Part shown: piece by piece, positions 8,874 through 27,250 of the stretch
Position numbering within the stretch: position 1 is the first letter of the stretch
Layout: each line of letters starts with the position of its first letter
From: Gemmata obscuriglobus
GTDB lineage: Bacteria > Planctomycetota > Planctomycetia > Gemmatales > Gemmataceae
Assembly (NCBI RefSeq): GCF_008065095.1
Contig: NZ_CP042911.1
Location: 2,310,001-2,342,000, forward strand
Direction of reading: 5' to 3'
DNA length: 32,000 nt
Made by a program: the position numbers and the translations under genes
The notes under the pieces: generated by a model
Told to the model about the DNA's origin: nothing
Seen by the model: only the letters and a program-made list of their open reading frames with translations
The model's database searches: none

Positions 8874-9097
8874 CGGAACCCGCACGACGGAGTACGCAAC
8901 ACTTGTAACCGTAACTCATGAACTGCAAAGCGCAAGCGGGAAACGGTTTCTGGGGCCAACTGCGCCGAGCCGTTCGGCCGACCGTCCCGTCGCCGGGGCC
9001 GGCCGGCTCGCTAAGACATGAGAACCTCTCCCGGCCCTCCGCGACGGCTCGCGGTTCGGTACACTTCTCAGCACGCACCAGTCGGGAGATTGTTTCA

Positions 9098-12772: not shown

Positions 12773-13052
12773 AGTCGGTAGTTTAGGTCGCATGGGCATG
12801 GGGTAGGTGGTTCGGGTAGTCGGCGGGTCGCGTGTTGAACCATGCGGGCCGCCGGCGCTCCCGCGCCAAGCGATCTCGGACAGGTGCTTGGTTCGGTCCG
12901 GTTGGCTGAAGGCGGGCACTTCGCGCGTGGCTGCCACATCCGCGCAAGTCGTTGGGGCGAAACGCCGCGGCGACTGAACCGCGAATAAGTGAAGACAGAG
13001 GGCCGCCGGCGCACATGCAACCGGTAAGGAAACCGTGCGCAGGGAGGAAGCC

Positions 13053-15857
13053 ATGAGGGTAAGCCAAACTGTCTCGTTGGGCCGGGCGGTCGTGGGGGCG
13101 GGGGGCGGGACAGACACCGACCGCGAGTTACTCCGCCGGTTTGCGCGCGACGGCGACCAAACGGCGTTTGAGGCGCTCGTGAGGCGACACGCCGGCATGG
13201 TGCTGGGCGTGTGCCGTCGGTCGCTGCCGACCGTTCAGGACGCCGAAGACGCGTGCCAGGCGACGTTTGTGGTGCTGGCCCGCCGTGCCGCCGCCGTCCG
13301 GTGGAGCGAGTCGGTCGCGAGTTGGCTGTACACCACCGCCCGCCTGGTCGCGCGGAACGCTCGCGTTGCGGCCGCCCGGCGGGTCGAGCGTGAGGCCCGG
13401 GCGGCGGTGCCGGAGGTGGTCGAGCCAGTCGACCGGGTGACCGGGCGCGAGATGTTGGCGGCCCTCGACGCGGCGATCGATCGGTTGCCGCCGGCGTACC
13501 GCGAGCCGCTGGTACTGTGTTACCTAGAGGGGCTGACGCACGATGAGGCGGCGGCCCGGCTGGGCGTGCCGCGGGGCACGGTCGGCACACGGGTGGACCG
13601 CGGGCGAAAGCGGTTGCACGCGGCGCTGGTGCGGGCCGGGCTCGCGCCGACCGCCGGGTTACTGGCTCTCGCGGTCGCGAACCCGGCGTCGGCGCGGCTG
13701 GTCGGGCTGGCCCTCGCGGCGGTGGCGGGGCCGGTGCCGGTCGCGGTCGCGGAGCTGGCGAACGGAATCGCCACGACCGGAACGGCGAAGTCGCTGGTGT
13801 GTGCGCTCGTGGCGTTGGCGTGCGCCTGCGCGCTGGCCGCCGGGCTGGCGTCGGTGGCACCATCGCGTGGGGGCGTGGCCCGACCGACCGCGGCGAAGGG
13901 GGAACCGCCTGTGGTGGCGCCTTCGGCGGCGCGAGTTGAGATCAAGGGGCGGGTGGTCGACGCGAACGACAAACCGCTGCCAGGGGCGAAGCTGTTCCTG
14001 CACTTGGGGCACACGATAGTGCCGGCGCAGCAGGTGGCTGCGGGCGACGACGGCCGCTTCCTGTTCACAATCTCGGGTGACACATTGCCCTTGCTGCTTG
14101 CCACTGCGCCTGGGCAGGGGGTGGGGCGGTGGCCCCTGAACGGGCGCCCGGTGGCGGAGTTCACGCTCCGGCTGACCCCAGACGAGCCGGTCCGCGGGCG
14201 TGTCGTGGACCCGGAGGGCAAACCGGTCGCTGGCGTGTCGGTGTCGGCCCGCGCGCTGTACATGTACCACGGTGAGAAGGATTTCGATCGCTGGTTGAAG
14301 GCGGCACGCGACCCGGATTGTAAGGAGGTGGCGAGAGGCGGTGAGCCGATCTACGGCACAGAGCGTGGATTCACCGGACCGATCGAGCCGGCCACTTCCG
14401 ACCGCGACGGCCGGTTCGAGCTTCGCGGCATCGGCCGCGACCGGGTCGTGGTCCTCCGTGCCTCCAGCCCTACCACCGCCACGCACGAACTGACCGTGGT
14501 GACGCGGAAGGTCGAGCGGTTCACCGCCCGCGCCGACACTGCCATCACCGGCAGCGCAGAGGAGGTCCACGGGTGCGAGCCGGTGGTGGTGGCCGCGCCG
14601 GTGCCGGTCACCACCGGTCGGGTGCTCGACGACGCCACCGGCGAGCCCGTCCCGGGTACCGTGCTGCGGGTCGGTGGGCTGCACGGTTCGTCGAGGCTGG
14701 CGGAACTGATCGCGGTTGCGGGCCGGGACGGGACGTTCGTGCTGCCCGGGCTGCCGCCGGGCGGGCGGCCGCACGCGTTCGTCCTCCCGCCGGGCGACAC
14801 TTTATATCACGCACTCAAGGTGAGCGTCCCCGACGAGCCCGCCGGCCGCGCCGGTTTCGACATCAAGCTGACTCGTGGCGTGCCGGTCACGGTGAAGGTC
14901 GTTGATAAGGTGACCCGCGCGCCGGTAGAGTCGCAGCTCCGGTACGGCGTGTTTCCGGGCGACAATCCGAACCAGAAAGCGGTGCCGAACGTGCGCCACT
15001 TTCACCAGACCGAGCACCCGCGTCGGCCGTACATCTCGTACGAGTCGGAGTTCCGTATCGTCGCATTCCCCGGCAAAGGGATGCTGGCCGTGCAGGTCCC
15101 GGAAGTCGGCGCGTTCGGCGGCGCGTACCTCTGCGGGGTCGGGGCCGGGACGTTCGAGAAGCACCGGCGGGGCGACGAGTTGGTCGGCACGACCGGGGTG
15201 AGCAGAACCTCCGTCCGGGACTGGCACACGTTCGCCGAGATCGACGTGCCGGCCGACGCGAAGTCGTTCGCGGTCACGCTCGAACTGGACCGCGGGTTGA
15301 CGGCGCCGGTCCGGCTGATCGACGCCGACGGGCGACCGGTCGCCGGGGCCGAGAGTTACGGGCTGGTCCACCCGGCCGGGGGCGCGCGGTGGTCCCGGCC
15401 GCTGGCCGACGCGACGCCGACCGCGGTCGCCCTGCGCGCCGGCGAGCAGCGGCGGGTGATGTTCGTGCACACTGACCGCAAACTGGCCGGGTCCGCGGTC
15501 GTGGTCGGCGGGGCGAAGGACCCGGTCGAGGTGCGAATGGTCCCGTGGGGTGAAGTCAAGGGGCGCATCGTGAACGCCGACGGTAAGCCGGTCGACGTCC
15601 GCCTCGATCTCTCTACCGACTTCGTTCGCAAACCAGATCTCAAGTTCGGGTCGACGCCCATCTGGAACCCGGCGATTGCGGGTGTCTACACTGGCGAGGA
15701 CGGGTGCTTCCGCATCACTGGCTTGGTACCCGGCTTGACGTACCGGTGGGGCGTCAACGGGTGGACGGTCGACGCGGCTACGTCCACGGACACGGTCGCG
15801 AAAGGCGGCGAGACGATCGACCTCGGCGAGATCGTGGTGCGCCCCGAACAGCCGTGA
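13053..15857 (+). CDS. ECF (group IV) sigma-70 factor fused to a transmembrane helix and about six carboxypeptidase-regulatory-like beta-sandwich repeats
   Basis: ATG 13053 follows AGGGAGGAAG. Region 2: DQTAFEALVRRHAGMVLGVCRR..DAEDACQATF. Region 4: YREPLVLCYLEGLTHDEAAARLGVPRGTVGTRVDRGRKRL. Transmembrane segment: LVCALVALACACALAAGLASV. Repeats include GRVVDANDKPLPGA, GRVVDPEGKPVAGV, GRVLDDATGEPVPGT, VRLIDADGRPVAGA and GRIVNADGKPV. Confidence 0.8.
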   Translation: MRVSQTVSLGRAVVGAGGGTDTDRELLRRFARDGDQTAFEALVRRHAGMVLGVCRRSLPTVQDAEDACQATFVVLARRAAAVRWSESVASWLYTTARLVARNARVAAARRVEREARAAVPEVVEPVDRVTGREMLAALDAAIDRLPPAYREPLVLCYLEGLTHDEAAARLGVPRGTVGTRVDRGRKRLHAALVRAGLAPTAGLLALAVANPASARLVGLALAAVAGPVPVAVAELANGIATTGTAKSLVCALVALACACALAAGLASVAPSRGGVARPTAAKGEPPVVAPSAARVEIKGRVVDANDKPLPGAKLFLHLGHTIVPAQQVAAGDDGRFLFTISGDTLPLLLATAPGQGVGRWPLNGRPVAEFTLRLTPDEPVRGRVVDPEGKPVAGVSVSARALYMYHGEKDFDRWLKAARDPDCKEVARGGEPIYGTERGFTGPIEPATSDRDGRFELRGIGRDRVVVLRASSPTTATHELTVVTRKVERFTARADTAITGSAEEVHGCEPVVVAAPVPVTTGRVLDDATGEPVPGTVLRVGGLHGSSRLAELIAVAGRDGTFVLPGLPPGGRPHAFVLPPGDTLYHALKVSVPDEPAGRAGFDIKLTRGVPVTVKVVDKVTRAPVESQLRYGVFPGDNPNQKAVPNVRHFHQTEHPRRPYISYESEFRIVAFPGKGMLAVQVPEVGAFGGAYLCGVGAGTFEKHRRGDELVGTTGVSRTSVRDWHTFAEIDVPADAKSFAVTLELDRGLTAPVRLIDADGRPVAGAESYGLVHPAGGARWSRPLADATPTAVALRAGEQRRVMFVHTDRKLAGSAVVVGGAKDPVEVRMVPWGEVKGRIVNADGKPVDVRLDLSTDFVRKPDLKFGSTPIWNPAIAGVYTGEDGCFRITGLVPGLTYRWGVNGWTVDAATSTDTVAKGGETIDLGEIVVRPEQP

Positions 15858-15901: not shown

Positions 15902-15965
15902 CGTGGCGCCGGGGACGGCCCCTCGGCCCTCTCTAGGAGACCGGGGGGCCGTTCCCGGCGCCACG
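15902..15965. terminator. Bidirectional hairpin between convergent genes
   Basis: 21-bp inverted repeat with one mismatch: cgtggcgccggggacggcccc (15902..15922) pairs with ggggccgttcccggcgccacg (15945..15965). It lies between the stop of the sigma gene (15857) and the stop of the Clp-like gene (15998). The smaller palindrome aaaacgtttt lies just upstream. Confidence 0.55.
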
Positions 15966-15997: not shown

Positions 15998-18373
15998 CTA
16001 CGAAAACACACACACGCCGTCGCACCAGTCGGCTGCGATTACCTTCCCGTCTGTGATCGGGTTCGCGAGCAGCCATCGGGCGAGAGGGGCAACCACCTCG
16101 CGCTCGATCGCGCGCTGGAGCGGTCGTGCCCCGTACCGCGGGTCAAATCCCACCTCGGCGAGACGCTCCACCAGTCGCTCCGACCACCGCACCGCGGCCC
16201 CGCTGCGCACCAGCCCCTCGCGGGCGGCGATGGACTCCAACTCGCGCCGGGTGATGGCCCGCACGGACGCCGGGAGCAGTGACCGGAACGTGACTACGGC
16301 GTCCATCCGGTTGAAGAACTCCGGGCGGAAGAACTTCATCGCGGCGTCCTGGTACCGCACCCCCGAATCCGCACCGAACCCCACCGCGCGCGACTGCCCG
16401 GCCCCGAGGTTCGAGGTCATGATGATGATCGTGCTGCGGAAGTTGGTGACGCGGCCGTACTGGTCCGTGAGCCGGCCTTCATCGAACACGCCCATGAGCG
16501 TGTCGAACACGTCCGCAGCCGCCTTCTCGATCTCGTCCAACAGCAGCACGCTGAACGGCTGCTGGCGCACCCGCTTCACCAACTCGCCGGGCTCGCCGCG
16601 GGGCGGCCCGAGCAGCCGGTACACCGCGTCGAACCCGCCGTACTCGCTCATGTCCAGCCGGATCAACCGCCGGTCCCGTGCGGAATGCGGAATTCGGGAT
16701 TCGGAATGCGGAGAGGCGGTACCGCTGCTTCGTTGGTTTTCCTGCTGCAATTCCGCATTCCGAATTCCGCGTTCCGAATTACTTCCCCCGTGTCCGAAGA
16801 AGTAGTCGGCGAGCGCCTGGGCCATGTGCGTTTTGCCGACCCCCGTCGGACCGCAGAACAGCATCACCGCGGGCGGGCGGTTCGGGTCGTTCAGCCCCGC
16901 CTTCACGGTCATCACGACGTTGGTGGCGGCCTCGCACGCCTCCGGCTGGTCGATGACGCGCGCCCGGAACCAGCTCCGCACGTCGTCGCGCTGGAGCGTG
17001 ATCTCGTCGCGCAGGAACAGCTCCGGTAGCCCGGTCTGCCGGCGGAACCGGTCCACCACCGCGGTCGGGGTGACCGGCTTCTTGCCGTCGCGGACGTGTT
17101 CGTCTACCAACTGTCGCGCGAACCCGGACGCGGGGCCGGGGAACGCCGCGTAGGGCATGAACCGCCGGAACAGGCGGACGATGCGCTCGCCGGTCCCGCG
17201 CTCGACCTCTACCCCGGGACCGCTCGCGGACGCGTCGAGCTGCCGGTCGATGACCGACAGCGCGGTGGCACGGTCGAACGGTTCGACGCGGACGATCTGG
17301 AACAGGTCCGGTAGCCCGGGCATGAGCCGGTGGCACGCGTCCAACTCCGCGGGCGTTACCTCGGCGATCATGCGCAGTTCGCCGCGGGCGAGGTACGGGA
17401 CCAGGAACGCCGCGATGCTGTCGGTGGGGCCGAGCCCGCCGGTGCGCACGAGTTCCAGCAGCCGCTCCGCGCACAGGACGCCGTTGATTTCGCCCAGTTC
17501 CGCAATCAGCGACTCGACGCGCTCCTCCCACTGCCCGAGGTACCGCATCCCGGCGACGATGCGGCCGGCGGACGTGAGCCAGAACTTCCGCTTCTGCGGC
17601 CGCGGTTCGTCGGCGTCGCGAGAGCGGTTGGTGTCGGCGAGGGCTTTCTTCTCGGCCTCCCGGACGGCGTCGACCATGAGCGTGGTTTTGCCGACGCCCG
17701 CCTCGCCCAGGAGCAGCACGTTGGCCTTTTCGTGGTGCAGCTTGCGGACGAGCGCGGCGAGGTCGGCTTCGCGGCCCCAGGCGCGGGCGTAGCCCTTGCG
17801 CACCGCGCGGTCGCCGACCGGTTCGGCCACCTTCGCCAGCGTGGGCGGCGGGGGTACCGTGAGCGGGCCGCCTGGCGGTTCCTTCGGAACGGGAACGACG
17901 AGCTCGAGCAGCTCGGCCTCGACCGGCGGCAGGTACGCGCCCACCTCTTCCGGCGTCAGCCCTTCGAGCTTCTGCGAGACGTACCGCTCGACGAGCTTTT
18001 CGAGTTCGGTCCCGTTGGGGTAGTCGAACCGGAGCCCGAGCAGCGGCAGGTCCGCGGCGAACTGACCGCTCTTGCGGGTGCCGACGACGCACGGCACCCG
18101 CACCGGCACCTCGGCGTCCGTGGGGTACAGCCGGTTCTTCCCCTTGTACTCGGGCCGCACGTTGACGGTGAACCAGCGCAGCTCGGGCTCGCCGAAGTCC
18201 GGCGCCTCGGCGTGCTCGTCCTTGCGGTGCAGCCAGCGCAGGTACTCCTTGAGGTCGTCGCGGGCGTCGTTGGCGGTCTTGCCGAACCCGGTGGTGCCGA
18301 GGTCCAGCGCGATCGCGGAGTGCCCGCCGGCGGCGTCGCGACAGAGCAGGGCGTGGTAGCGTGCGGTGGGCAT
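15998..18373 (-). CDS. Clp/Hsp100-like double-AAA+ ATPase, paralog A (791 aa, no C-terminal extension)
   Basis: Starts at ATG 18373 (MPTARYHALL). D1 P-loop: LLLGEAGVGKTT. D1 small-domain motif: RFMPYAAFPGPA (compare the ClpA/B LPDKAID motif). D2 motifs: FCGPTGVGKT, LLLDEIEKA, MTSNLG, FRPEFFNRMD, GARPLQRAI. There is no ClpB-type M-domain. Confidence 0.85.
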   Translation of the reverse strand: MPTARYHALLCRDAAGGHSAIALDLGTTGFGKTANDARDDLKEYLRWLHRKDEHAEAPDFGEPELRWFTVNVRPEYKGKNRLYPTDAEVPVRVPCVVGTRKSGQFAADLPLLGLRFDYPNGTELEKLVERYVSQKLEGLTPEEVGAYLPPVEAELLELVVPVPKEPPGGPLTVPPPPTLAKVAEPVGDRAVRKGYARAWGREADLAALVRKLHHEKANVLLLGEAGVGKTTLMVDAVREAEKKALADTNRSRDADEPRPQKRKFWLTSAGRIVAGMRYLGQWEERVESLIAELGEINGVLCAERLLELVRTGGLGPTDSIAAFLVPYLARGELRMIAEVTPAELDACHRLMPGLPDLFQIVRVEPFDRATALSVIDRQLDASASGPGVEVERGTGERIVRLFRRFMPYAAFPGPASGFARQLVDEHVRDGKKPVTPTAVVDRFRRQTGLPELFLRDEITLQRDDVRSWFRARVIDQPEACEAATNVVMTVKAGLNDPNRPPAVMLFCGPTGVGKTHMAQALADYFFGHGGSNSERGIRNAELQQENQRSSGTASPHSESRIPHSARDRRLIRLDMSEYGGFDAVYRLLGPPRGEPGELVKRVRQQPFSVLLLDEIEKAAADVFDTLMGVFDEGRLTDQYGRVTNFRSTIIIMTSNLGAGQSRAVGFGADSGVRYQDAAMKFFRPEFFNRMDAVVTFRSLLPASVRAITRRELESIAAREGLVRSGAAVRWSERLVERLAEVGFDPRYGARPLQRAIEREVVAPLARWLLANPITDGKVIAADWCDGVCVFS
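16679..16783. repeat. 105-bp palindromic element made of inverted heptamer arrays, inserted in frame in paralog A
   Basis: Left arm: five tandem heptamers gcggaat/gcggaat/tcgggat/tcggaat/gcggaga. Right arm: the inverse array caattcc/gcattcc/gaattcc/gcgttcc/gaattac. It encodes SNSERGIRNAELQQENQRSSGTASPHSESRIPHSA, which is absent at the same site in paralogs B and C. It is visibly less GC-rich than the flanking sequence. Confidence 0.7.
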
Positions 18374-18380
18374 GGCGATA

Positions 18381-18450
18381 AGGCAAAAGTGTGAAGGCAA
18401 AAGGCAAAACGCAAGGCGAGCCGCCTCACGAGTTGCTTCTTTTTTGCCTT
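18381..18450. repeat. A/T-rich spacer with a reiterated AGGCAAAA motif between paralogs B and A
   Basis: aggcaaaa occurs at 18381..18388 and 18395..18402, and ggcaaaa at 18403..18409. The inverted copy ttttgcct is at 18443..18450. The 92-bp intergenic region is clearly lower in GC than its surroundings. Confidence 0.5.
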
Positions 18451-18465
18451 TTAACTTGCTCCTTT

Positions 18466-21400
18466 TTACTTGGTTGCCCGCGGCAGTGCGGCGAGCGTGA
18501 AGGTGCGGAACACGTCGGCGAACTCGGCCCGCGACGGCAGCGGCGAGACGAGCCCGGTGCGCAGGTCCGCGACCGGTTGGCCGTCGGCGTACACGCGCAG
18601 GATCGGGCCGAACGCGAACGGGTCCGGCACCGCGCCGAGCCACCCGTCGAGCACGTCCACGCGCACCGGCACCGGGCCGCCGTGCTTCGGCAGGAACAGG
18701 TGCGTTCCGGCCTCGGCCTGTGCCAGTGCGCGGGCGTGGAGCCCCTTCAATCGCAGGGCGAGCGTTCCACGCTGTTCGGACGCGATCGGAACGTTTTCCA
18801 GTTCCAGCCCCAACCCGTGCGCCCAGACGCGCAGGTACCAGCCGTGCAGCGCGGCCGCGCCGGGGCACGCTTCGCCCTCGGGGAACCCGCGGATCAGCAG
18901 GTACACCGGCCTCTCATCGACCGGCGCCGACACCATCAGGTTCAGCAGCGCGAGCCGGTTCTCCAGGTCGAACACGTCCTGGTCGTCGGGCAGCGGTTCG
19001 GACCCCTCGAATAGCTCGCGGAGCGCCCCTTGCATGTCTTCCGACGACATCACCGAACGGAGCGGTTGGTCCCGCTCGTGCCAACCCTCACCGCGGCCCG
19101 AGCTGAGAGAGTAACGGTTGATCTTGATCGCGCGGTAACGGGCGCGGCGCCCGGTCGATTCGGGCTGGGAGGCTTCGAGGTACGAGTTGCGCCGGGCTTC
19201 GAGCCGGGCCTCGTAGGCGTCGAGTGTGCCGGCGATGGCGTCGGCCAGTTCCTTGAGCGCGAAGTAGCGCTCGTGGTCGCGCGTCACCCGCCCGGCGGTC
19301 AGTACGGTCCCCGGGCGAATGGCGTCGAGCACCGCGTCCACCTTGTCGAGCGCGTCCCATGCGGCCGATAGGCGGTCCCGGAGCGGCCGGGCGGCGCGCT
19401 CGTCGAGCGGGAGCTTGGCCGCCCATTCCGGTGCCTGCACATCAACGGCCAGTGTGCCGGCCGCGGCGCGCACCGTTACGATCGTGAGGTCGTTCACCGC
19501 GAGTGCCGCGAGCCGAGAGGCCGCGGGCTGAGTCAGTTCGTGCTCCACCGCGCGTTTCATGGCGCGGGCGCCGAGTGCAGGGTCGTAGCCCGCCTGGATG
19601 ACGCGGTCCAGCGCGTCGGGGGCGACGTTCAGCACACACTTCCGCTGGCTAAAGCCCTCGCGGGCGAGCACCTCACCCACCAGCCGCCGGGCGATCCGCG
19701 CCATCTCCTCGCGCGACAGCTTGCGGAACGGGATCACCCGGTCCAGGCGGTTGAAGAACTCGGGCCGGAAGAACTTCTCCGCCGCCCGCGTGTACGCGAA
19801 CGACCGGTCCGCTTCGGTCACGAACCCGAGGTTCCCTTCGGCGTCGCGTACGCCGAGGTTCGAGGTCATGAGGACGAGCGCGGAGGTGAAGTCCGCGGTG
19901 CGGCCGAGCGAGTCCGTCAGCCGCCCCTCGCCCAGCAGTTGCAGGAGCAGGTCGAACACCTCGGGATCGGCCTTTTCGATCTCGTCCAGCAGCACCACCG
20001 CGAACGGCTGGCGCCGGATCGCGCTCGTGAGCAGCCCTTCGGGTTGCTGGAACGTGCCCACGAGCCGCGCCGCGGCGCCGGGCTGGTTGTACTCGTTCAG
20101 GTCGAAGCGCAGCAGCCGATCAGAATCGCCGAACAGCGTGCGCGCGATGGCCTTGGCGCACTCCGTCTTGCCGACGCCCGTGGGGCCGAGGAACAGGAAC
20201 GCCGCGAGCGGCCGGTCCGGGTCGTTCAGCCGCGCCTTGGCGACGCTCACCACGTCGGCGAGGGCGTCCACCGCGTCGGGCTGGCCGATCACCTGCTCTT
20301 GAAGCTTGTCCCGGACTGCGTCGCGGTCCAGCCGCTGCTTCGGGTCGAGGAACGCGAGCGACAGCCCGCTCCGGGCGGCGAAGTCGTTCAGCACGTCGTC
20401 GCGGGTGATCTCGGGGCGCGGCGGGAACTCGTACCCGTCGGCCGGGCGCGTCGCGCTGGACCCGACCTCCGCGGCGCGTTCGTCGGGGTTCGTGGTGGCG
20501 CGCACCGCCAGGCGCGTCAGCACCGCGGCGGCCTTCCCCGGGAACGCGGCGGTGCGGTCGTAGCGGCGTTGCTGGTCGATGACCGCGGGCAGCACGTCGA
20601 GCCCGAACACGCAGGCGTGCTTGCCTTCGAGTCGCCGCTGCTGGTCCACCAGGACGCGGAGCGTGTCGGCGTCGGTCGGCTGGCGCACCGGGATGATGTG
20701 GAACAGGTCGCTGAGCCCGCGGTCCCGCTCCTGGAGCACGCGCAGGCTCTCGGGGGTGATCTCGGCGAGCACCCGCACGTCGCGCCGTTCGAGGTACGGT
20801 TTCAGGACCACCGCGGCACTGAGCGACGACTGGCTCGTGACGCCGGCGAGGAACAGGCCGAGCAGGTCGTCGAAGTAGAGCACGTGGTCGCGCTTCTTGG
20901 CGTGCTTCAGGATCGCGAGCAGCCGGCCCTCCCACTGGCCCACGTAGGACATGCCCGAGATGAGCCGCTGTGGCGACACCAGCCACGTGTTGAACCACTG
21001 CCGCTGGTTCGCCTTGCGCTCCGCGACGCGGCGGTACACGCACTCGTGGACGATGGCGGATTTGCCGACGAGGCGGGGGCCGCACAGCAGCACGGGGCGC
21101 CGGTCGCCCAGCTCCAGGAGCCGGTGGAGTTCGTTCACCTCGCGGTCGCGCAGCACGGCGCGGTCGAGTTCGTCGGGGTACAGCCAGTCGAGGCACCGGC
21201 CGACGCGACGCAGCTCGGTGGCGCCGTCCCCCGTTTCCCCGCCGCCGAGCGACAGGAAGTTGGCGGGCGGCTTCTTCGGCACCACCGCGGGCACGCTGGC
21301 GCTCAGGTCCAGCACCTGGACCCACGCCTTGCCCGACAGGGAGCCGAGTTCGGGGCGCACCTCCTCGTCAACGTCGGCGTCGCGTTCGACCCCGCGCCAG

Positions 21401-21792
21401 TGCTCCGTGTAAACCGCCTGTGCGCGGTCCTCCAGGGGCTCGCCGCGGGGCACCTCGAACCACAACTCGGGCACCGCGGGCGTGAACGCGAGCCGGCGGC
21501 CGAGGTGGTCGAACGCCAGCACGAGGTACTTGGTGCGCGCGACCCGGCGCCGCAGCTCGACATCGACGGTGGTGCGGTGCGCGGTGACGGCCGGGCAGAA
21601 CGCCCAGGCCGCGAGTTCGTCGTGCCGCTCCTTGCGGCCGAGCGCTTCGAGGTGCTCGACCAGCTCCCGGGTGAGCTTCGTGAGCAGCCGGTTGAGGTTC
21701 CCGTCGGTGCGCTCGGGGCCGCCGAAGAACAGCGGGCGCGCGGTGTACCCGTTCTTGTGCTGGAAGACGTAAATCGGGACGCGGAAGTTCAT
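18466..21792 (-). CDS. Clp/Hsp100-like double-AAA+ ATPase, paralog B (1108 aa) with a release-factor-like C-terminal extension
   Basis: Starts at ATG 21792 (MNFRVPIYVF). D1 P-loop: LLCGPRLVGKS. D1 Walker B-like motif: VLYFDDL. D2 motifs: FLGPTGVGKTE, VLLDEIEKA, MTSNLG, FRPEFFNRLD, GARAMKRAV. About 320 aa follow the D2 small domain. Confidence 0.85.
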   Translation of the reverse strand: MNFRVPIYVFQHKNGYTARPLFFGGPERTDGNLNRLLTKLTRELVEHLEALGRKERHDELAAWAFCPAVTAHRTTVDVELRRRVARTKYLVLAFDHLGRRLAFTPAVPELWFEVPRGEPLEDRAQAVYTEHWRGVERDADVDEEVRPELGSLSGKAWVQVLDLSASVPAVVPKKPPANFLSLGGGETGDGATELRRVGRCLDWLYPDELDRAVLRDREVNELHRLLELGDRRPVLLCGPRLVGKSAIVHECVYRRVAERKANQRQWFNTWLVSPQRLISGMSYVGQWEGRLLAILKHAKKRDHVLYFDDLLGLFLAGVTSQSSLSAAVVLKPYLERRDVRVLAEITPESLRVLQERDRGLSDLFHIIPVRQPTDADTLRVLVDQQRRLEGKHACVFGLDVLPAVIDQQRRYDRTAAFPGKAAAVLTRLAVRATTNPDERAAEVGSSATRPADGYEFPPRPEITRDDVLNDFAARSGLSLAFLDPKQRLDRDAVRDKLQEQVIGQPDAVDALADVVSVAKARLNDPDRPLAAFLFLGPTGVGKTECAKAIARTLFGDSDRLLRFDLNEYNQPGAAARLVGTFQQPEGLLTSAIRRQPFAVVLLDEIEKADPEVFDLLLQLLGEGRLTDSLGRTADFTSALVLMTSNLGVRDAEGNLGFVTEADRSFAYTRAAEKFFRPEFFNRLDRVIPFRKLSREEMARIARRLVGEVLAREGFSQRKCVLNVAPDALDRVIQAGYDPALGARAMKRAVEHELTQPAASRLAALAVNDLTIVTVRAAAGTLAVDVQAPEWAAKLPLDERAARPLRDRLSAAWDALDKVDAVLDAIRPGTVLTAGRVTRDHERYFALKELADAIAGTLDAYEARLEARRNSYLEASQPESTGRRARYRAIKINRYSLSSGRGEGWHERDQPLRSVMSSEDMQGALRELFEGSEPLPDDQDVFDLENRLALLNLMVSAPVDERPVYLLIRGFPEGEACPGAAALHGWYLRVWAHGLGLELENVPIASEQRGTLALRLKGLHARALAQAEAGTHLFLPKHGGPVPVRVDVLDGWLGAVPDPFAFGPILRVYADGQPVADLRTGLVSPLPSRAEFADVFRTFTLAALPRATK

Positions 21793-21872
21793 GGCGAAAA
21801 AGGCCCATTCCCGATGCTTCAGTGCCAACAAGCGACACCGCTAACCCGCAGCGAGTTCGGCGCGCGGTGCGT

Positions 21873-22057
21873 GGACCTAACCCCCCGGCCCCCTTCCCTG
21901 AAGGGAAGGGGGTGAACGCGGGTAATGCCTCCTTGGAACCGTTTAACGGTCCGGTGTGGCCCGCGTCGAAATACGACTCACGCCACACGGCTGCGCAGGA
22001 GGCGTTGCCCGCGTTCACCCCCTTCCCTTCAGGGAAGGGGGCCGGGGGGGTAGGTCC
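21873..22057. repeat. 185-bp element with 60-bp terminal inverted repeats (MITE-like or structured RNA) between paralogs C and B
   Basis: The left arm (21873..21932) is ggacctaaccccccggcccccttccctgaagggaagggggtgaacgcgggtaatgcctcc. It equals the reverse complement of the right arm (21998..22057) except for 3 mismatches. Each arm contains its own 10-bp hairpin (cccccttccc / gggaaggggg). The 65-bp centre holds further small palindromes, accgtttaacggt and ccggtgtggc..gccacacgg. Confidence 0.7.
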
Positions 22058-22063
22058 TCCCCC

Positions 22064-25000
22064 CTACTCCGAGATCATCTTGAGCAGCGTGGACCGCACG
22101 TTCGCCGCCAGCGCCGGCGCCAGCCACCGGTCGAAGCCGCCGTACACGTTCGACCACACGCGCTCGACCACCGCGTCGTGCATCTCGCCGGTGCCGAAGT
22201 CGTACTGCCGGCGCACCGGCTCGTCGCTGAACCAGCCGCGGCGAACGACCGTCTCCGGCGGCAGGTACTCGCGCGCTGGGCCGCTGCTCGCCCGCACCAT
22301 CACGTCCGGGCCGTCGCCGGTTTTGTCGTCGGGCCGTTTGATCTCGTGCCGCCCGGTTTCGCCCCAGAACCGTAGTTGCGCGCCCACGCCGCCGATTTCC
22401 AGAACGAGGCCGATGGTGCCGGCGGTTGTGTCGGGGGCGTGTTCTGCCGGCGCCACCGCGACCCGCTTGAACAACAGCTTCTCCGGGTCCCTGAAAAAGT
22501 AGTTGTCGTTCACCCACACCGTTTTCGGCAGGTTCGGGTCCGCTGCACGGCCGAGCGGGGCGCGCTCGGGCGGCGTCGCGGGCGGGTCGTTCGGGGCCGG
22601 CAACGCGTAGCGGAACACACGCACCGTCATCCCGTGCTCGTGCGCGATCGCGCGGTAGGCGGCGGCCATCTCCGCGAGGTTCCCGCGGTGCTCGGAGAAC
22701 AGCGCGAGTGTGACGCGATCCCCCTCCGGTGCGCTCAAGGCGTACAACCGAAGGAGCAACTTGTCCCAGGCGCGGTTCGCTTCGTCGAGCCGCTCCTGAA
22801 TCTCCCGGGCGGGCGGTTCCGCCGTTTCGTGGAACGCGATCACGGTGGCGTCCTCGAGCGCGAACGCGGCGTCCCGCTGGCGCGCGACCTCGTCGGCCAG
22901 TTCCCGGAGCCGGCCGAGCTTCGCCAGCGCCTCGGCCTCCGCGCCGCTGATCTTCTTCTTTGCGGCCTGCCTCTTGAGGATGCGGACCTCTTGCTGCGCG
23001 AGCTGGTACACCTCGTTGTTCAGCTCGCGCACCGCGGACGACGCGGCCAGCACCTGGTGCCACCGGCGCATCACCTGCGCGCCGGCCGCGAGCTTCCCGC
23101 TCGGCCCGGACGGCTCACGCGCCGATTTCGCCCGCGCCCCCTGAAGGGCGCGCACGGCGACGATCGGCACGCCGTCCGCCACGCCCACCTCAACGGCCAG
23201 CGGCACGTTGCCGGCGTGCCGGTTCATCTGCCGGGCGAGCGGCGCGAGCAGCTCGCGCTCCATCGCCCGCTTCAGCGGGCGCGCGCCGTACCGCGGGTCG
23301 TAACCGACCGCCGCCAGGTGGTCCAGCAGCGCCGGGTCCGTCGCGAGCGACAGGTCACGGAACCGCACCCCGTCGCGGCCCTGCACCTTGTGCCACTCGC
23401 GGTCCGTGATGCCGCGGATCACCTCCGGCCCGAGCGGCGCGAAGGGCACGATCCGGTCGAGCCGGTTGAACATCTCGGGCCGCAGGAACTGCTCCACCGC
23501 CCGCGCGAAGTGCTCCTGCGATTCGGTTTTCCCGACCGCGCCGGTCAGGAACCCGGACGAGCCGCGGCGGAACGAGTCCGCGCCCAGGTTCGACGTGAGG
23601 ATGACGACGGTGTTGCGGAAGTCCGCGAGCCGGCCGCCGGCGTCCGTGAGGCGCGCCTCGCCGAGCGCCTGGAGCAGCAGATCGAAGAACGAGTGGTCCG
23701 CCTTTTCCACCTCATCAAGGAGCAGCACCGCGAACGGCTGCTCGCGCACCCTCGCGGTGAGCAGCCCCTCGCTCCCGAACGCCCCGCCGACGAGCCGGCG
23801 CACCGACACCGGGTCGGCGTACTCGCTCATATCGAACCGCGTGAGCCGGTCCTTCGAGCCGAACAGGAACTCCGCCACCGCCTTCGCCATCTCGGTCTTG
23901 CCGACGCCCGTCGGGCCGATGAACAGCAGCGACGCGATGGGCCGGTTGGGGCGCGTCAGCCCCGCCTTCACGGTGGCGAGCAGGTCCGTCACCAAGCTCA
24001 CGGCGTCGGGCTGGCCGATCACGCGCCGGGCGAACCAGTCGTGCGTGGCCGCCAGGTCGAGGGGCACCGACGGGTCCAGGACGGCGCGCGGCAGCCCGGT
24101 TTCGCGCGTGAACGCATCGTACACCTCGGTTTCGGTGATCGGCTCGCCCTTGGCGCCGTCGCGGATCAGGTTTTCGAGGAACCGGAGCGGCCGGCCCGGG
24201 TACGCGGAGTACGTCGCGTACCGGCGGTGGAGGCGGTCCGTTGCGGCGAGCGCGGCCGGCTCGGTCACGCGGCGGGCGTTGTCGCGTGCGAAGCTCGCGA
24301 GGATCGCGCGCCCCTTGGCGGTGCCGGGCTCCTCGACCGTGATGTGCCGGAACGCGTCGAGCAACTGCGGGTCCAGCTTCTCGATGAGCGGCAGTTGCTC
24401 GGGGGTGCATTCCGCGACGCACAGCAGCTCGCCGCGGCCGATCGCCGGGCGCAGGAACGTGGCGAGGCCGGACGAGTTGTGCTCGCTCTTGCCCACCTCG
24501 AGCAGTTCCACCAGGGGGCCGAAGTGGATCACGGCCTTGCGCTTCGTCGCGTCCTTGATGAGGTCCTGGCACCGCTCCTGCCACATGCCGAACCCGGTCT
24601 GGCCGGCGACGACCCGCGCGCCGCTGGTCTGGAAGACCGGGGCACGCGCCGACGCGCGCCAGCGGCGGGCGAGTTCGCGCACCGCGGCCGTTTTGCCGAC
24701 CCCGCTCGGGCCGATCAGCAGGACGCTTTGCGTCGGGTTGCCCGTCAGCGCGCGGGTGAGTTCCGAGACCGTCTCATCGGCCTCGTAGGTCTTTTCGTCG
24801 TCGCGCCCGAGAAGTGTGGCGATCTGTTGCAGCAGCGTGAGCTTTCCGTCCTGCTGATCGGTTTCGGCGCGGATCGCGCGGTCCTTGAGGGTCGGGATGC
24901 GGACGGCGAGCGCGTGGGACTCCACGGCGAACCCGAGCGTGGTCTGAACGCCGGCGACCGACTTCAGGTTCACCGACAGGTTCAACCGCCGCAGCGCCGC

Positions 25001-25468
25001 CAGCGTGTCCTTCTGGAGCAACCGCACGAGGTTGTCGGCCGGGTCCGCGATCACCTCGATCCCGAGTTCCAGAACACGCGCCAGGGTGTAGCCCTTGAAT
25101 TGGGGCGCGCTGGGGCCGAACGGCGCTCCGTCTGGGTCGGAGGGGCTGTCCGAGGCGCTCTGATCCCACACCGCGGCGTGGAACGTGAGCAGCAGCGGGT
25201 CGCGCCAAGCTTCGTTCGTGCGCGGCGGGGACAGTTCCAGCGTGAACGTGAGTTCTCGTGCCGCCCGGGAGCGGCGCCGCCGGAGCAGCGTTTCGGGATC
25301 GAGTTTGGGAATCAGCTCAGTGAGGTTTCGCCGCGCGGCCGTACCCGCAAGGGCGCGGTTCGCCCCGAGGCGAGCGAGTTCGGGGAAGAACAGCGGTTCC
25401 GCCAGCACCGCCCCGGGGCCGAGCTTGCGCAGGGCGAGGGAAACGGGGAACTCGATCTCAACCGCCAT
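22064..25468 (-). CDS. Clp/Hsp100-like double-AAA+ ATPase, paralog C (1134 aa) with a release-factor-like C-terminal extension
   Basis: Starts at ATG 25468 (MAVEIEFPVS). D1 P-loop: LLIGPSGVGKT. D2 motifs: FIGPTGVGKTE, LLLDEVEKA, LTSNLG, LRPEMFNRLD, GARPLKRAM. About 360 aa follow the D2 small domain. Confidence 0.85.
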   Translation of the reverse strand: MAVEIEFPVSLALRKLGPGAVLAEPLFFPELARLGANRALAGTAARRNLTELIPKLDPETLLRRRRSRAARELTFTLELSPPRTNEAWRDPLLLTFHAAVWDQSASDSPSDPDGAPFGPSAPQFKGYTLARVLELGIEVIADPADNLVRLLQKDTLAALRRLNLSVNLKSVAGVQTTLGFAVESHALAVRIPTLKDRAIRAETDQQDGKLTLLQQIATLLGRDDEKTYEADETVSELTRALTGNPTQSVLLIGPSGVGKTAAVRELARRWRASARAPVFQTSGARVVAGQTGFGMWQERCQDLIKDATKRKAVIHFGPLVELLEVGKSEHNSSGLATFLRPAIGRGELLCVAECTPEQLPLIEKLDPQLLDAFRHITVEEPGTAKGRAILASFARDNARRVTEPAALAATDRLHRRYATYSAYPGRPLRFLENLIRDGAKGEPITETEVYDAFTRETGLPRAVLDPSVPLDLAATHDWFARRVIGQPDAVSLVTDLLATVKAGLTRPNRPIASLLFIGPTGVGKTEMAKAVAEFLFGSKDRLTRFDMSEYADPVSVRRLVGGAFGSEGLLTARVREQPFAVLLLDEVEKADHSFFDLLLQALGEARLTDAGGRLADFRNTVVILTSNLGADSFRRGSSGFLTGAVGKTESQEHFARAVEQFLRPEMFNRLDRIVPFAPLGPEVIRGITDREWHKVQGRDGVRFRDLSLATDPALLDHLAAVGYDPRYGARPLKRAMERELLAPLARQMNRHAGNVPLAVEVGVADGVPIVAVRALQGARAKSAREPSGPSGKLAAGAQVMRRWHQVLAASSAVRELNNEVYQLAQQEVRILKRQAAKKKISGAEAEALAKLGRLRELADEVARQRDAAFALEDATVIAFHETAEPPAREIQERLDEANRAWDKLLLRLYALSAPEGDRVTLALFSEHRGNLAEMAAAYRAIAHEHGMTVRVFRYALPAPNDPPATPPERAPLGRAADPNLPKTVWVNDNYFFRDPEKLLFKRVAVAPAEHAPDTTAGTIGLVLEIGGVGAQLRFWGETGRHEIKRPDDKTGDGPDVMVRASSGPAREYLPPETVVRRGWFSDEPVRRQYDFGTGEMHDAVVERVWSNVYGGFDRWLAPALAANVRSTLLKMISE

Positions 25469-25630
25469 GAACGCTCCCGGAACAGGATCGCACAGTGTGA
25501 CGCATCGGGACAGAGGGGGCAAGTGGGTGCCCGGTTCGGTGCGCCGGATCGGAACAAACGCGCGCCGAATTTGTTCCAATTCGTGTATGTGGTACGGGCC
25601 GAGCGGCTACTGAATGGGTAGGAGGGGGCC

Positions 25631-27250
25631 ATGTCGCACCGCACCGCCCGTTTCGTCGCAGCACTCGTTCCCGAGCGCGAATTGCCGACCGATGCGGAAC
25701 TGCTCGCTCGGTTCGCCGCCGGGCGCGACGCCGGCGCGTTCGAACTGTTGGTCTGGCGCCACGCCGGGCTTGTGCTTCGCGTGTGCCGCGCGGCCCTCCG
25801 CGACCGGCACGCCGCGGAGGACGCCGCTCAAGCCGTGTTTTTGGCCCTGGCCCGTCAGGCCGGCTCGGTCGGTCGGTCCGGGACCGCCGCCGGCTGGCTG
25901 TTTCGGGTGTCGCGTCGGGTGTCTGCTCGGGCGGCGCGGCGCCGAGTCGCGGTTCCTGTGCCAGCTTCCGATCTCGACGCGCTCCCCGCGCCTGACGCTC
26001 CTGAACCGGACCGTGACGCCGAACGCGCGGTTCAGGAGGAGGTCGCGCGGCTGCCGGAATCGCATCGGGCGCCGGTGCTTCTGTGCTTCTTTGAAGGGCT
26101 GACCCACGCCGAAGCGGCCCGGCGGCTCGGTGTTCCCGTCGGCACCGTGGCGGGGCGGATCGCGCGGGCCAAAGAGGTTCTGGCCGTCCGGCTGAGGCGG
26201 CGCGGCCTCTCGCTCGCCGTTCTCCCTTCAGCCGGTGTTCTGATCGTTCCGGCGTTCGTGTCGGCCACCGCCCACATCGCAATCACCTTTGCGGCGGAAG
26301 GCCGCGTCGGTGTGCCCGGCCCCGTTCTCGAACTCGTCAATCAGGAGTTGCGCGTGATGGCCCTCAAGAGAGTGCTCGGCGGCGCTGCCGCGCTCGTGCT
26401 GGTCGTGGCTGGTGCGTGCCTGAGCTTCGGGATGAGCGGGCCGCCCGAACCACCCGCCGCGCCTACCCCGGCCCCGCACGTGGCGGCCGAAAAGCCGCCT
26501 GCTCCGAAGGTGCCGGCTCCGGTGATCGGCAAGGCGTTCGCTATCGCCCCGATCACCACCGACCTCCAGCGTCAGCTCATTCGCGGCGCCGGGGCCGACT
26601 CAGCGGTGCTTCTGATTGTGGACGCGCAAACGCTGCTAAAGGACGATAAGACACTCGATGTCGGCGCCCTTCAGCTCGCCGAGATGCGGAAGGGCCTACG
26701 AGCATTCCGGCGAGCGAAAGGCCAATCTGTCGCCCACAGCGCGGTTCACTATCCGTTCGGTCGCGAAATATCAGGTGACAGCGCGGACGCGCTCGATTTC
26801 GTGCTCGCCGGTGCGGCGCGCGCTGAAGAGTTCGCTCCGGTTACGCCGCTCGGATACCACACCGTACACAACCAGGCGTTCGATTTCGTCAAGTACATCA
26901 GCCCACTGAAGGAGAAGGCGGCGGGCGACACGGCCGAGGTTGGCGTGGGTGACGAGCGGGTGGTTGCGTACCCGGTGCGAACGCCGCTCAGTCAGGTGTT
27001 GACCGGCTCGGTCAGCGGAGTGCTCATCGTAAAAACGCCGGTCATGTGCCAGGGGGACGTGTGGCAGGCGGACGGCTTGGGGGCATCGGTCCGGGGCACA
27101 CTCGAAAAGCTGAAGCTGGCCAAGGGCAGTCGGGTCTACTTCTCGCTGAACGTGCAAGGGCGGAACCCCAAGGCGACCGACCAACTGCGGCTCGACTGTG
27201 CGGAGTGGGCGAAAGACGCCGGATTAGAGTTGTGGCAGACCAGCTATTAA
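25631..27250 (+). CDS. ECF sigma-70 factor fused to a transmembrane helix and an uncharacterised ~270-aa C-terminal domain
   Basis: ATG 25631 is preceded by GGAGGGGG. Region 2: DAGAFELLVWRHAGLVLRVCR..AAEDAAQAVF. Region 4: HRAPVLLCFFEGLTHAEAARRLGVPVGTVAGRIARAKEVL. Transmembrane segment: VLGGAAALVLVVAGACLSFG. It is a paralog of the 13053 sigma gene in its sigma part. Confidence 0.8.
   Translation: MSHRTARFVAALVPERELPTDAELLARFAAGRDAGAFELLVWRHAGLVLRVCRAALRDRHAAEDAAQAVFLALARQAGSVGRSGTAAGWLFRVSRRVSARAARRRVAVPVPASDLDALPAPDAPEPDRDAERAVQEEVARLPESHRAPVLLCFFEGLTHAEAARRLGVPVGTVAGRIARAKEVLAVRLRRRGLSLAVLPSAGVLIVPAFVSATAHIAITFAAEGRVGVPGPVLELVNQELRVMALKRVLGGAAALVLVVAGACLSFGMSGPPEPPAAPTPAPHVAAEKPPAPKVPAPVIGKAFAIAPITTDLQRQLIRGAGADSAVLLIVDAQTLLKDDKTLDVGALQLAEMRKGLRAFRRAKGQSVAHSAVHYPFGREISGDSADALDFVLAGAARAEEFAPVTPLGYHTVHNQAFDFVKYISPLKEKAAGDTAEVGVGDERVVAYPVRTPLSQVLTGSVSGVLIVKTPVMCQGDVWQADGLGASVRGTLEKLKLAKGSRVYFSLNVQGRNPKATDQLRLDCAEWAKDAGLELWQTSY

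Follow-up and report, generated by a model that had tools for sequence, protein, structure and literature searches.

INTRODUCTION

Clp/Hsp100 unfoldases are among the best-studied bacterial machines and, to our knowledge, almost all of them are homo-hexamers with Clp_N-type or zinc-binding N-terminal domains. We analyzed a 32,000-nt stretch of the Gemmata obscuriglobus genome (NZ_CP042911.1, 2,310,001 to 2,342,000; hereafter the window, within which all coordinates are given) that carries three adjacent genes, C, B and A, encoding Clp-like proteins with two AAA+ modules (D1 and D2). An earlier sequence-only reading of this DNA had singled them out as a candidate uncharacterized system. The trio is set apart by three specialized subunits in one operon, a first ring that probably does not hydrolyze nucleotide, a motor ring without the canonical pore loop and, on B and C, C-terminal tails that resemble release factors (RFs) lacking the hydrolase domain. 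We are highly confident of this architecture and of the release-factor homology of the tails, both of which were derived from sequence comparison and structure modeling. The best reading of the data, to which we give a probability of about 0.4, is that the three proteins form a hetero-oligomeric unfoldase that would dock on ribosomes via the release-factor-like tails, possibly feeding ClpP.

Several described systems share parts of this design. In Pex1/Pex6, D1 is the inactive ring and D2 is the motor. In release factors, domain 2/4 contacts the decoding center, and domain 1 contacts the stalk and the GTPase center. The release-factor survey by Burroughs and Aravind (PMC6514570) describes, for all canonical release factors, a hydrolase domain inserted into the codon-recognition domain, with a helical GTPase-interacting domain ahead of it, and lists the variants ArfB/ICT1 (hydrolase only), PrfH (without domain 1) and MRPS35. 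The term "Clp" is absent from the survey, and term searches of it gave no architecture like that of the tails. An inactive D1 is mentioned in PMC5762779 and PMC9265785. Full-text literature searches gave no description of this Clp-like trio, and Pfam, NCBIfam and PADLOC hold no model for the trio family or for its N- or C-terminal domains. The fusion of a Clp/Hsp100 protein with a release-factor-like tail is unprecedented.

RESULTS AND DISCUSSION

Gene organization and conservation of the triad

Genes C (22064-25468, 1134 aa), B (18466-21792, 1108 aa) and A (15998-18373, 791 aa) are long open reading frames (ORFs) arranged head-to-tail on the minus strand, each with an ATG start, and follow one another in the order C-B-A. 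All domain coordinates given below for these genes are likewise on the minus strand. The start codons are supported by alignments of the orthologs, which begin at residue 1, and the three proteins are mutually 33-38% identical over D1 and D2 by BLASTP. The shared direction and paralogy proposed by the sequence-only reading are therefore real, and its coordinates were exact.

The B profile was searched against one genome per species, which returned 79 loci, and the ORFs of these loci were typed by BLASTP against A, B and C. The orthologs fell into three clearly separate groups; across phyla they were 36-49% identical to their counterpart in the window, and the paralog types were about 35% identical to each other. 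Full-length orthologs of B were present throughout the Gemmataceae, and C orthologs were found in 52 loci (36-97% identity). The nearest relative among the fetched loci was Gemmata algarum JC673, with A, B and C proteins 95-97% identical. According to the record titles, the hosts belonged to Planctomycetota (Gemmataceae, Pirellulaceae, Planctomycetaceae and Phycisphaerae), Acidobacteriota (Blastocatellia, Pyrinomonadaceae and Vicinamibacterales) and Verrucomicrobiota, together with a few loci whose metagenome-assembled genome (MAG) labels pointed elsewhere (Clostridia, Heliobacteriaceae and Alcaligenaceae).

Gene order was counted in the 56 loci from other genomes in which both flanks were readable. 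The arrangement C-B-A, in the same order and on one strand, was observed in 39 of them; eight carried C-B only (e.g., Zavarzinella), six carried B-A (including one misfiled trio), and B stood alone in three. Two further C-B-A trios were misclassified by the script because stop-to-stop ORFs extend upstream. The genes thus occur as a conserved triad and not as scattered singles, in agreement with the earlier proposal of a system. A 4-bp overlap of stop and start codons was seen for C-B in 12 of 37 pairs and for B-A in 8 of 33, which suggests an operon with translational coupling; at two loci (L015 and L037), about 2.6 kb lay between C and B. The comparison of gene order and sequence indicates that C, B and A are a conserved, self-contained three-gene operon.

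ATPase core and comparison with named Clp families

Each of the three proteins matched the Pfam models AAA_2 (PF07724, 128-142 bits) and ClpB_D2-small (PF10431, 45-53 bits), and D1 gave weak generic AAA/P-loop matches alone. An AAA_2-type D2 with a D2-small domain, preceded by a P-loop AAA module, is the composition of Clp/Hsp100 class 1, and D1 of the trio aligns with D1 of ClpA/ClpB. The modules lie at residues ~226-470 (D1, 24059-24793) and ~471-759 (D2 and small domain, 23192-24058) in C, ~206-460 (20413-21177) and ~461-774 (19471-20412) in B, and ~196-450 (17024-17788) and 451-791 (16001-17023) in A. Pfam gave no match in the N-terminal domains or in the C-terminal extensions of B and C, as the sequence-only reading had expected of this search.

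When scored against the curated NCBIfam models for ClpB, ClpA, ClpV/TssH, ClpK and ClpG, the three proteins reached 168-332 bits, roughly 3- to 9-fold short of the cut-offs of 885-1900. The best-scoring model was that of ClpB (290-332 bits vs. a cut-off of 1232). The two ClpA models gave 250, 323 and 263 bits (TIGR02639, cut-off 993) and 168, 265 and 189 bits (PRK11034, cut-off 1350), ClpV/TssH (TIGR03345) gave 219-228 bits against 885, and ClpK/ClpG (NF033606/NF033607) gave 204-247 bits against 1900. None of the three is a full-length member of a characterized Clp family, which upholds what had been claimed from the sequence.

A single unbroken alignment with ClpA structures covers residues 209-768 of B (185-727 of ClpA), and B and C each aligned with the NCBIfam ClpA model over both modules in one stretch. 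The alignment of B with ClpB came in two pieces, with about 29 residues between the D1 and D2 matches compared to about 129 in ClpB; this short linker leaves B without an M-domain. No Pfam match to Clp_N was obtained in residues 1-200 of A, B or C, so both absences noted earlier were borne out. With two rings and no M-domain, the core of the trio is ClpA-like, and by these alignments C, B and A are ancient paralogs of a ClpA-type double-ring AAA+ unfoldase.

Residue frequencies were taken from 45 A-type, 58 B-type and 52 C-type orthologs, and the three window proteins were aligned with ClpA and ClpB of E. coli. The Lys of Walker A in D1 was conserved in 100% of all three types (GPSGVGKT in C of the window). 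At the Walker B position, where ClpA/B have I-D-E, A-type proteins have C-[VA]-[ED]-[NRS], B-type F-D-D and C-type [LVF]-G-[NSP]; the counterparts in the window proteins are AER in A (within C-A-E-R), FDD in B and FGP in C. The paired Arg fingers (RR) are replaced by DL in A, DL in B and DA in C, and the pore-loop aromatic residue is kept (Tyr in 97% of A, Tyr or Phe in B, G-F in C). Since the catalytic Glu and the Arg fingers are missing, D1 probably binds nucleotide without hydrolyzing it, judging from these residues. The ClpA/B-like D1 described earlier is therefore present in its P-loop, and the working ATPase is missing in all three proteins; in C, the module is degenerate.

D2 retains its ATPase motifs. 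The Walker A motif, the DE pair of Walker B and the sensor 1 TSN were 100% conserved in all types, and the per-residue conservation maps also showed conservation of FFNR (Arg finger) and GAR (sensor 2). The D2 pore loop, GAPPGYVGYEEGG in ClpB (PPGYVGYEEGG), is 5 residues shorter in all three types, and the GYVG Tyr is lost; an aromatic residue in this loop occurs in B only (G-T-F, with Phe in 81%). The D2 that had been called canonical is thus canonical in its ATPase motifs and not in its pore loop, from which the 5-residue deletion removes GYVG.

The likeness to ClpA consists of the two AAA+ modules, the missing M-domain, and a D2 with Walker A and B, sensor 1, Arg finger, sensor 2 and the D2-small domain. 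The trio differs from ClpA in having an alpha/beta N-terminal domain of 165-200 residues instead of Clp_N, a D1 without catalytic Glu and Arg fingers, a D2 with the GYVG pore loop deleted, three distinct subunits per operon and, on B and C, release-factor-like tails of 330-375 residues. ClpI of Actinomycetota is comparable as a double-ring Clp class that was defined bioinformatically and has a variable N-terminal domain, and an LGF motif is present in some of its members only (PMC10149685). ClpI differs in that it has an M-domain, intact ATPase and pore-loop motifs in both rings, a single gene and no release-factor-like tail, and belongs to another phylum. Identity of the trio with ClpI was rejected on the M-domain, the intact motifs and the single gene.

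Public annotation labels the orthologs as ClpA, ClpC or "AAA family ATPase", and automatic labels of the type "ATP-dependent Clp protease ATP-binding subunit ClpA/ClpC" would fit the view that these are ordinary housekeeping ClpA/ClpB/ClpC/ClpV paralogs in chance tandem. That view is refuted by the Pfam results, NCBIfam scores, motif tables and Foldseek search of the B tail (below): all curated cut-offs were missed, there is neither a Clp_N domain nor an M-domain, catalytic residues are missing from D1 and the pore loop from D2, the N-terminal domain is family-specific, and B and C carry release-factor-like tails.

Release-factor-like tails of B and C

The C-terminal extensions, which the sequence-only reading had noticed in B and C, measure 334 aa in B (residues 775-1108, 18469-19470) and 375 aa in C (residues 760-1134, 22067-23191). 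A-type proteins carry no tail, given a median length of 762 aa among 45 orthologs. A template-free AlphaFold2 model of B residues 775-1108 (predicted local distance difference test score, pLDDT, 86.8; predicted template-modeling score, pTM, 0.81) consists of four long helices followed by an alpha/beta domain. A Foldseek search with this model against the PDB returned release factors in 50 of the 50 matches listed (RF1, RF2, mtRF1, mtRF1a and PrfH); the best E-value was 4.7e-7, and 42 of the listed matches were below 1e-3. The structural check that had been suggested for the terminal regions thus related the B tail to release factors.

Sequence profiles and targeted alignments, two further independent lines of evidence, pointed to the same family. 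With a profile of 48 B-type tails from three phyla, the first four of 177,635 PDB sequences were entries of RF2 (E 0.0067) and RF1 (E 0.0096), and with a profile of 42 C-type tails, 40 of 45 matches to PDB sequences were release factors (best E 7.5e-5). The B-type tail aligned with E. coli RF2 30-203, whose terminal hallmark E-T-G-V-H-R is matched by the B-type E-x-G-T-H-L, and the B-type segment FxFGPvvRvY...DLRTGlv aligned with RF2 315-347. The C-type tail aligned with RF2 174-205 and 322-363 and with RF1 279-355 (RTYNFPQGRVTDHR). The best-conserved positions of the tails are the sites of the motifs E-x-G-x-H-R and I-R-x-Y...D-L-R-T-G, and an exact DLRTG occurs in the tails as in E. coli RF2.

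The two motifs are 124-125 residues apart in RF2/RF1, compared to medians of 47 residues in B-type and 41 in C-type tails. In RF1/RF2 the stretch between them contains SPF/PxT and the entire GGQ domain; of 112 tails examined, 3 contain GGQ. In two loci of Verrucomicrobiota (L063 and L067) and one of Vicinamibacterales (L075), the B-type tails are longer by about 100 residues, with extra helical or low-complexity inserts between E-x-G-x-H and R-x-Y, and GGQ is still absent from them. The alignment stops just short of the SPF position; by eye, the loop in B reads F-L-P-K-H-G-G-P, without SPF or PxT, and from the alignment and this by-eye comparison the His/Thr reading the third base also appears not to be conserved in the tails. 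Again by eye, the RF2 segment DIGWGS, which we take to be the switch loop, corresponds to DPFxFGP in B-type tails.

The tails are thus composed of the helical GTPase-interacting domain 1 and the codon-recognition superdomain 2/4, without the GGQ hydrolase domain. They share with RF1/RF2 these two domains and the motifs E-x-G-x-H-R and I-R-x-Y...D-(L/H)-R, and differ in missing the GGQ domain 3 (about 80 residues fewer), in apparently not conserving SPF/PxT, and in being fused to the C-terminus of an AAA+ protein instead of free-standing. Compared with ArfB (hydrolase domain only) and PrfH (without domain 1), as described in PMC6514570, they represent the opposite case, in which all but the hydrolase domain is kept. 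Whatever the function of the trio, a release factor variant lacking the hydrolase domain alone is absent from that survey. One possibility is that the tail represents the bacterial codon-recognition domain as it was before GGQ insertion, which would bear on the origin of bacterial release factors.

The main rival explanation is that the proteins are a stress disaggregase or general unfoldase for ordinary misfolded or aggregated proteins, either as homo-hexamers or in a mixed ring, with the release-factor-derived tail reused for regulation, oligomerization or substrate binding and playing no part at the ribosome. The Hsp100-like core with ClpB as the best-scoring NCBIfam model, the apparent loss of SPF/PxT and of the third-base His/Thr, and the ordinary chromosomal look of the neighborhoods, in which translation genes are not conserved nearby, are all in its favor. 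We nevertheless consider it unlikely: the M-domain for Hsp70 coupling is absent, the D2 pore-loop Tyr that is essential for ClpB/ClpG-type threading is deleted, and a plain disaggregase needs no three subunits in a fixed order across phyla. Conservation in the tails, moreover, peaks at the release-factor hallmark motifs, which suggests selection on a release-factor-like interaction surface or core.

N-terminal domains

The N-terminal domains comprise residues 1-225 of C (24794-25468), 1-205 of B (21178-21792) and 1-195 of A (17789-18373). The relatedness proposed for them was confirmed by profile-profile comparison, with a probability of 96.5% for A and C and 93% for B and C. A template-free AlphaFold2 model of B residues 1-205 (pLDDT 87.4) shows a beta-beta-beta-alpha unit, a four-stranded meander with a long helix, and one further strand; this alpha/beta fold is unlike the all-alpha Clp_N fold. 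Foldseek gave no whole-domain match in the PDB, and the first ~50 residues resembled the N-terminal domain of the HicB antitoxin (root-mean-square deviation 1.4 Å, E 0.14). The search of viral models likewise gave no match to the N-terminal domain.

The profile of the domain found nothing among PDB sequences, and a word-indexed profile search returned only fragments of the trio's own family. An exhaustive phmmer search with the C domain against 1.84 billion representative proteins yielded 122 matches. The long ones were 1040-1180 residues in length and carried the domain at the N-terminus (with one exception of 822 residues), and the rest were shorter and fragment-like. Because the matches are confined to the N-terminus of family members, the domain is specific to the trio family. 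It would be a new fold, whatever the function of the trio.

Another reading is that the AAA+ ATPases detect infection and abort it, as part of an anti-phage or conflict system. This would be in keeping with weak PADLOC matches over the AAA_2 region, to DolB and PDC-M37B (E 1e-16 to 1e-26), and multi-gene ATPase modules are common in defense. The PADLOC matches (DolB, PDC-M37B, mad8 and IetA) are, however, confined to the generic AAA core, and no effector domain (nuclease, protease, TIR or transmembrane segment) is present. Ortholog identity follows taxonomy, the neighborhoods are varied and not island-like, and the N-terminal domain has no viral structural match. Such a role is very unlikely.

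ClpP-type docking loop

B carries a ClpP-docking-type tripeptide of the ClpA/ClpX type, L-G-F, at residues 655-657 (19822-19830). The counterparts are V-G-F in A (residues 664-666, 16376-16384) and S-G-F in C (residues 638-640, 23549-23557), and ClpB has no tripeptide of this kind at the aligned position. The B loop (G-N-L-G-F) has the same length as the E. coli ClpA loop (R-K-S-I-G-L) and aligns with the ClpA loop SIGL, whether this is taken from the BAP hybrid (5ofo) or from the E. coli protein. Across orthologs, the loop Gly was conserved in 100% of all three types and the Phe in 93% of A, 74% of B (otherwise Leu/Tyr) and 92% of C; the first position is L/V/I in A and B, and C has x-G-F. 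By sequence, then, A (V-G-F) and B (L-G-F) have the (I/L/V)-G-(F/L) loop of ClpP partners. On these residues, we consider coupling of the trio to ClpP slightly less likely than not.

The same loop, conserved as (L/I/V)-G-F at the length of the ClpA loop, could also belong to a ClpP-dependent regulatory protease with a non-ribosomal client, the tails mimicking release factors to catch RF3, another translational GTPase or a tRNA-like molecule instead of entering the A site of the ribosome. Retention of domain 1, the GTPase-interacting domain in Burroughs and Aravind's terms, would suit this explanation. Superdomain 2/4 is kept as well, however, with the best-conserved motifs, and in release factors it contacts the 30S decoding center; the D2 pore loop is non-canonical, and no partner gene is conserved nearby. 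We regard a regulatory protease of this kind as improbable.

Proposed mechanism

In the ribosome-docked unfoldase that we favor, A, B and C would co-assemble into a single hetero-hexamer, in which the non-hydrolyzing D1 ring would scaffold the assembly and D2 would be the motor, an arrangement like that of Pex1/Pex6. Its release-factor-like tails would dock, independently of the codon, at the A site and GTPase center of stalled or idle ribosomes. The motor would then extract or unfold the ribosome-bound polypeptide, or split or remodel the ribosome, and the product might be passed to a ClpP encoded elsewhere in the genome.

Co-assembly is suggested by the gene order fixed in three phyla, the translational coupling and the complementary losses among the subunits: the D2 aromatic residue is found in B only, the full ClpP tripeptide in A and B only, and the tails on B and C only. 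From sequence and models, we consider a hetero-oligomer of A, B and C fairly probable. Ribosome targeting is suggested because the tails keep the parts of release factors that contact the ribosome, domain 2/4 and domain 1; docking through the tails is possible, and we propose it tentatively on the strength of the profiles and the B model. Delivery to ClpP is suggested by the conserved GF loops. The complete scheme is rather doubtful: a hetero-hexameric Clp unfoldase would act as a ribosome-rescue or quality-control machine, placing catalytically empty release-factor modules in the A site of stalled ribosomes without reading the codon, and would spend ATP either on pulling out the nascent chain (for ClpP) or on splitting the ribosome.

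Several observations weigh against the ribosome-docked unfoldase. The release-factor homology is remote, with profile E-values of 7.5e-5 to 1e-2. The Pfam models PCRF and RF-1 matched 0 of 48 B-type tails, which makes the link invisible to routine annotation. Global TM-scores of the B tail were low (≤0.42, closed RF2, 1gqe) because the relative arrangement of the domains differs, as is expected for a multi-domain protein. The stop-codon-reading residues appear not to be conserved, and the module may therefore serve a non-ribosomal use. A tail of 330-375 residues on the D2 small domain could hinder ClpP docking, and the D2 pore-loop deletion, as read from the alignments, makes a classical, processive threading into ClpP less likely. 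Some lineages can dispense with A, since genomes with C-B only (and also with B-A only) exist. Finally, translation or ribosome-rescue genes were not conserved beside the trio in the flank comparison (see below).

Pex1/Pex6, and also NSF D2, offer a parallel for one ring that binds nucleotide without the residues for hydrolysis while the other ring is the motor, and for paralogous subunits that are presumed to alternate in one ring. Pex1/Pex6 differ in belonging to the classic AAA clade and not to Clp/Hsp100 and in having two subunit types, not three, and the co-assembly of A, B and C is a proposal. The logic of the proposed ribosomal role resembles that of Pelota/Dom34-ABCE1 and Vms1-Cdc48, which serve ribosome rescue and quality control in eukaryotes and archaea: a release-factor-like protein that lacks a functional hydrolase motif sits in the A site of the stalled ribosome, and an ATPase acts mechanically on the ribosome or on the nascent chain (Dom34 and Vms1 as described in PMC6514570). 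The parallel is an analogy only: the folds are unrelated (aeRF1 superfamily, ABC ATPase), and those components are separate polypeptides, not fusions.

If the tails dock on ribosomes, the trio would provide a new rescue or nascent-chain quality-control route in Planctomycetota, Acidobacteriota and Verrucomicrobiota, which are abundant, slow-growing environmental bacteria with large genomes. It would then be the first case known to us of a Clp motor coupled directly and physically to the decoding site, and a counterpart of Pelota-ABCE1 or Vms1-Cdc48 made from bacterial parts, amounting to a new kind of rescue system. Irrespective of its function, the trio is a candidate natural bacterial hetero-oligomeric Hsp100 for mechanistic study.

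Neighboring genes

A domain scan of ten large neighboring ORFs found extracytoplasmic function (ECF) sigma domains in both flanking genes. One is an ECF-type sigma ORF of 940 aa (13035-15857, plus strand) with a large C-terminal extension carrying CarboxypepD_reg/Big_1-like domains; the other, of 539 aa (25631-27250, plus strand), also has a large C-terminal extension and is divergent from C. No ClpP, ClpS, type VI secretion or chaperone domains were present in the ten ORFs, as had been noted before, and the gene tables of two related loci likewise listed no type VI secretion genes.

To compare the flanks, ORFs from the window and from 80 related loci (81 sources) were all searched against one another by BLAST. 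No gene family was conserved beside the three ATPases; what seemed to be the leading families proved to be shadow ORFs within the genes, and the best of the genuine families, a generic short-chain dehydrogenase, occurred in 11 loci. The bracketing by ECF sigma genes reported for this window is thus real as a local arrangement and absent from other genomes. A link of ECF sigma to the trio was rejected on these grounds, and the flanks are probably incidental. Given this lack of conserved flanking families, the ECF sigma genes are local neighbors outside the system, as are a peptidase gene and a DUF3160 gene that the window also holds. The peptidase ORF (8918-12772, plus strand, 1284 aa) is an unusual fusion of two peptidases, in which a zinc carboxypeptidase M14 domain is joined to a DPP-IV N-terminal beta-propeller and a prolyl-oligopeptidase S9 domain.

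Local sequence features

The window has a guanine-plus-cytosine content of about 68%. A divergent intergenic region of 162 nt upstream of C (25469-25630, minus strand for the operon) is the presumed operon promoter region, and the palindrome GGAACAAATTCGGCGCGCGTTTGTTCC lies within 25540-25580, between C and the ECF sigma gene. The GGAAC half-sites of this palindrome look like ECF -35 elements. A scan for sigma-70 promoters found zero sites, and terminator-like sites were not commoner than in shuffled sequence.

An inverted repeat of 199 nt (21866-22064; 68-nt arms, 91% complementary, with 63 nt between them) begins at the C stop codon, occupies most of the 271-nt gap between C and B, and is rich in CCCCTTCCC/GGGAAGGGG. 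It looks inserted, since C and B overlap by 4 bp in many other genomes, and is probably an insertion like a miniature inverted-repeat transposable element or a repetitive extragenic palindrome. The 92-nt spacer between B and A (18374-18465, minus strand) contains a terminator-like GC-rich hairpin of 9 pairs (18410-18430) with a T-rich tail; three copies of TTTTGCCTT follow the hairpin, and AAAAGG-type repeats lie on the other side. Judged from its sequence, the hairpin may be an attenuator or terminator that reduces expression of A relative to B and C. A further inverted repeat past the A stop codon (15902-15965; 25-nt arms, 92% complementary) lies in the gap where A and the ECF sigma gene at 13035-15857 converge, and its sequence makes a bidirectional terminator at the operon end likely.

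Gene A also contains a palindromic element of about 100 nt (16681-16780), in frame within D2 (residues ~531-568), with GGAATKCGGAAT-type heptamer-like repeats and arms 86-89% complementary. It adds 38 low-complexity residues past the Walker A helix of D2. G. algarum has the same insert, and one further Gemmata MAG has a diverged copy; long inserts at that site were seen in a total of 4 of the 46 A-type sequences aligned. It looks like a small mobile repeat tolerated in the coding sequence.

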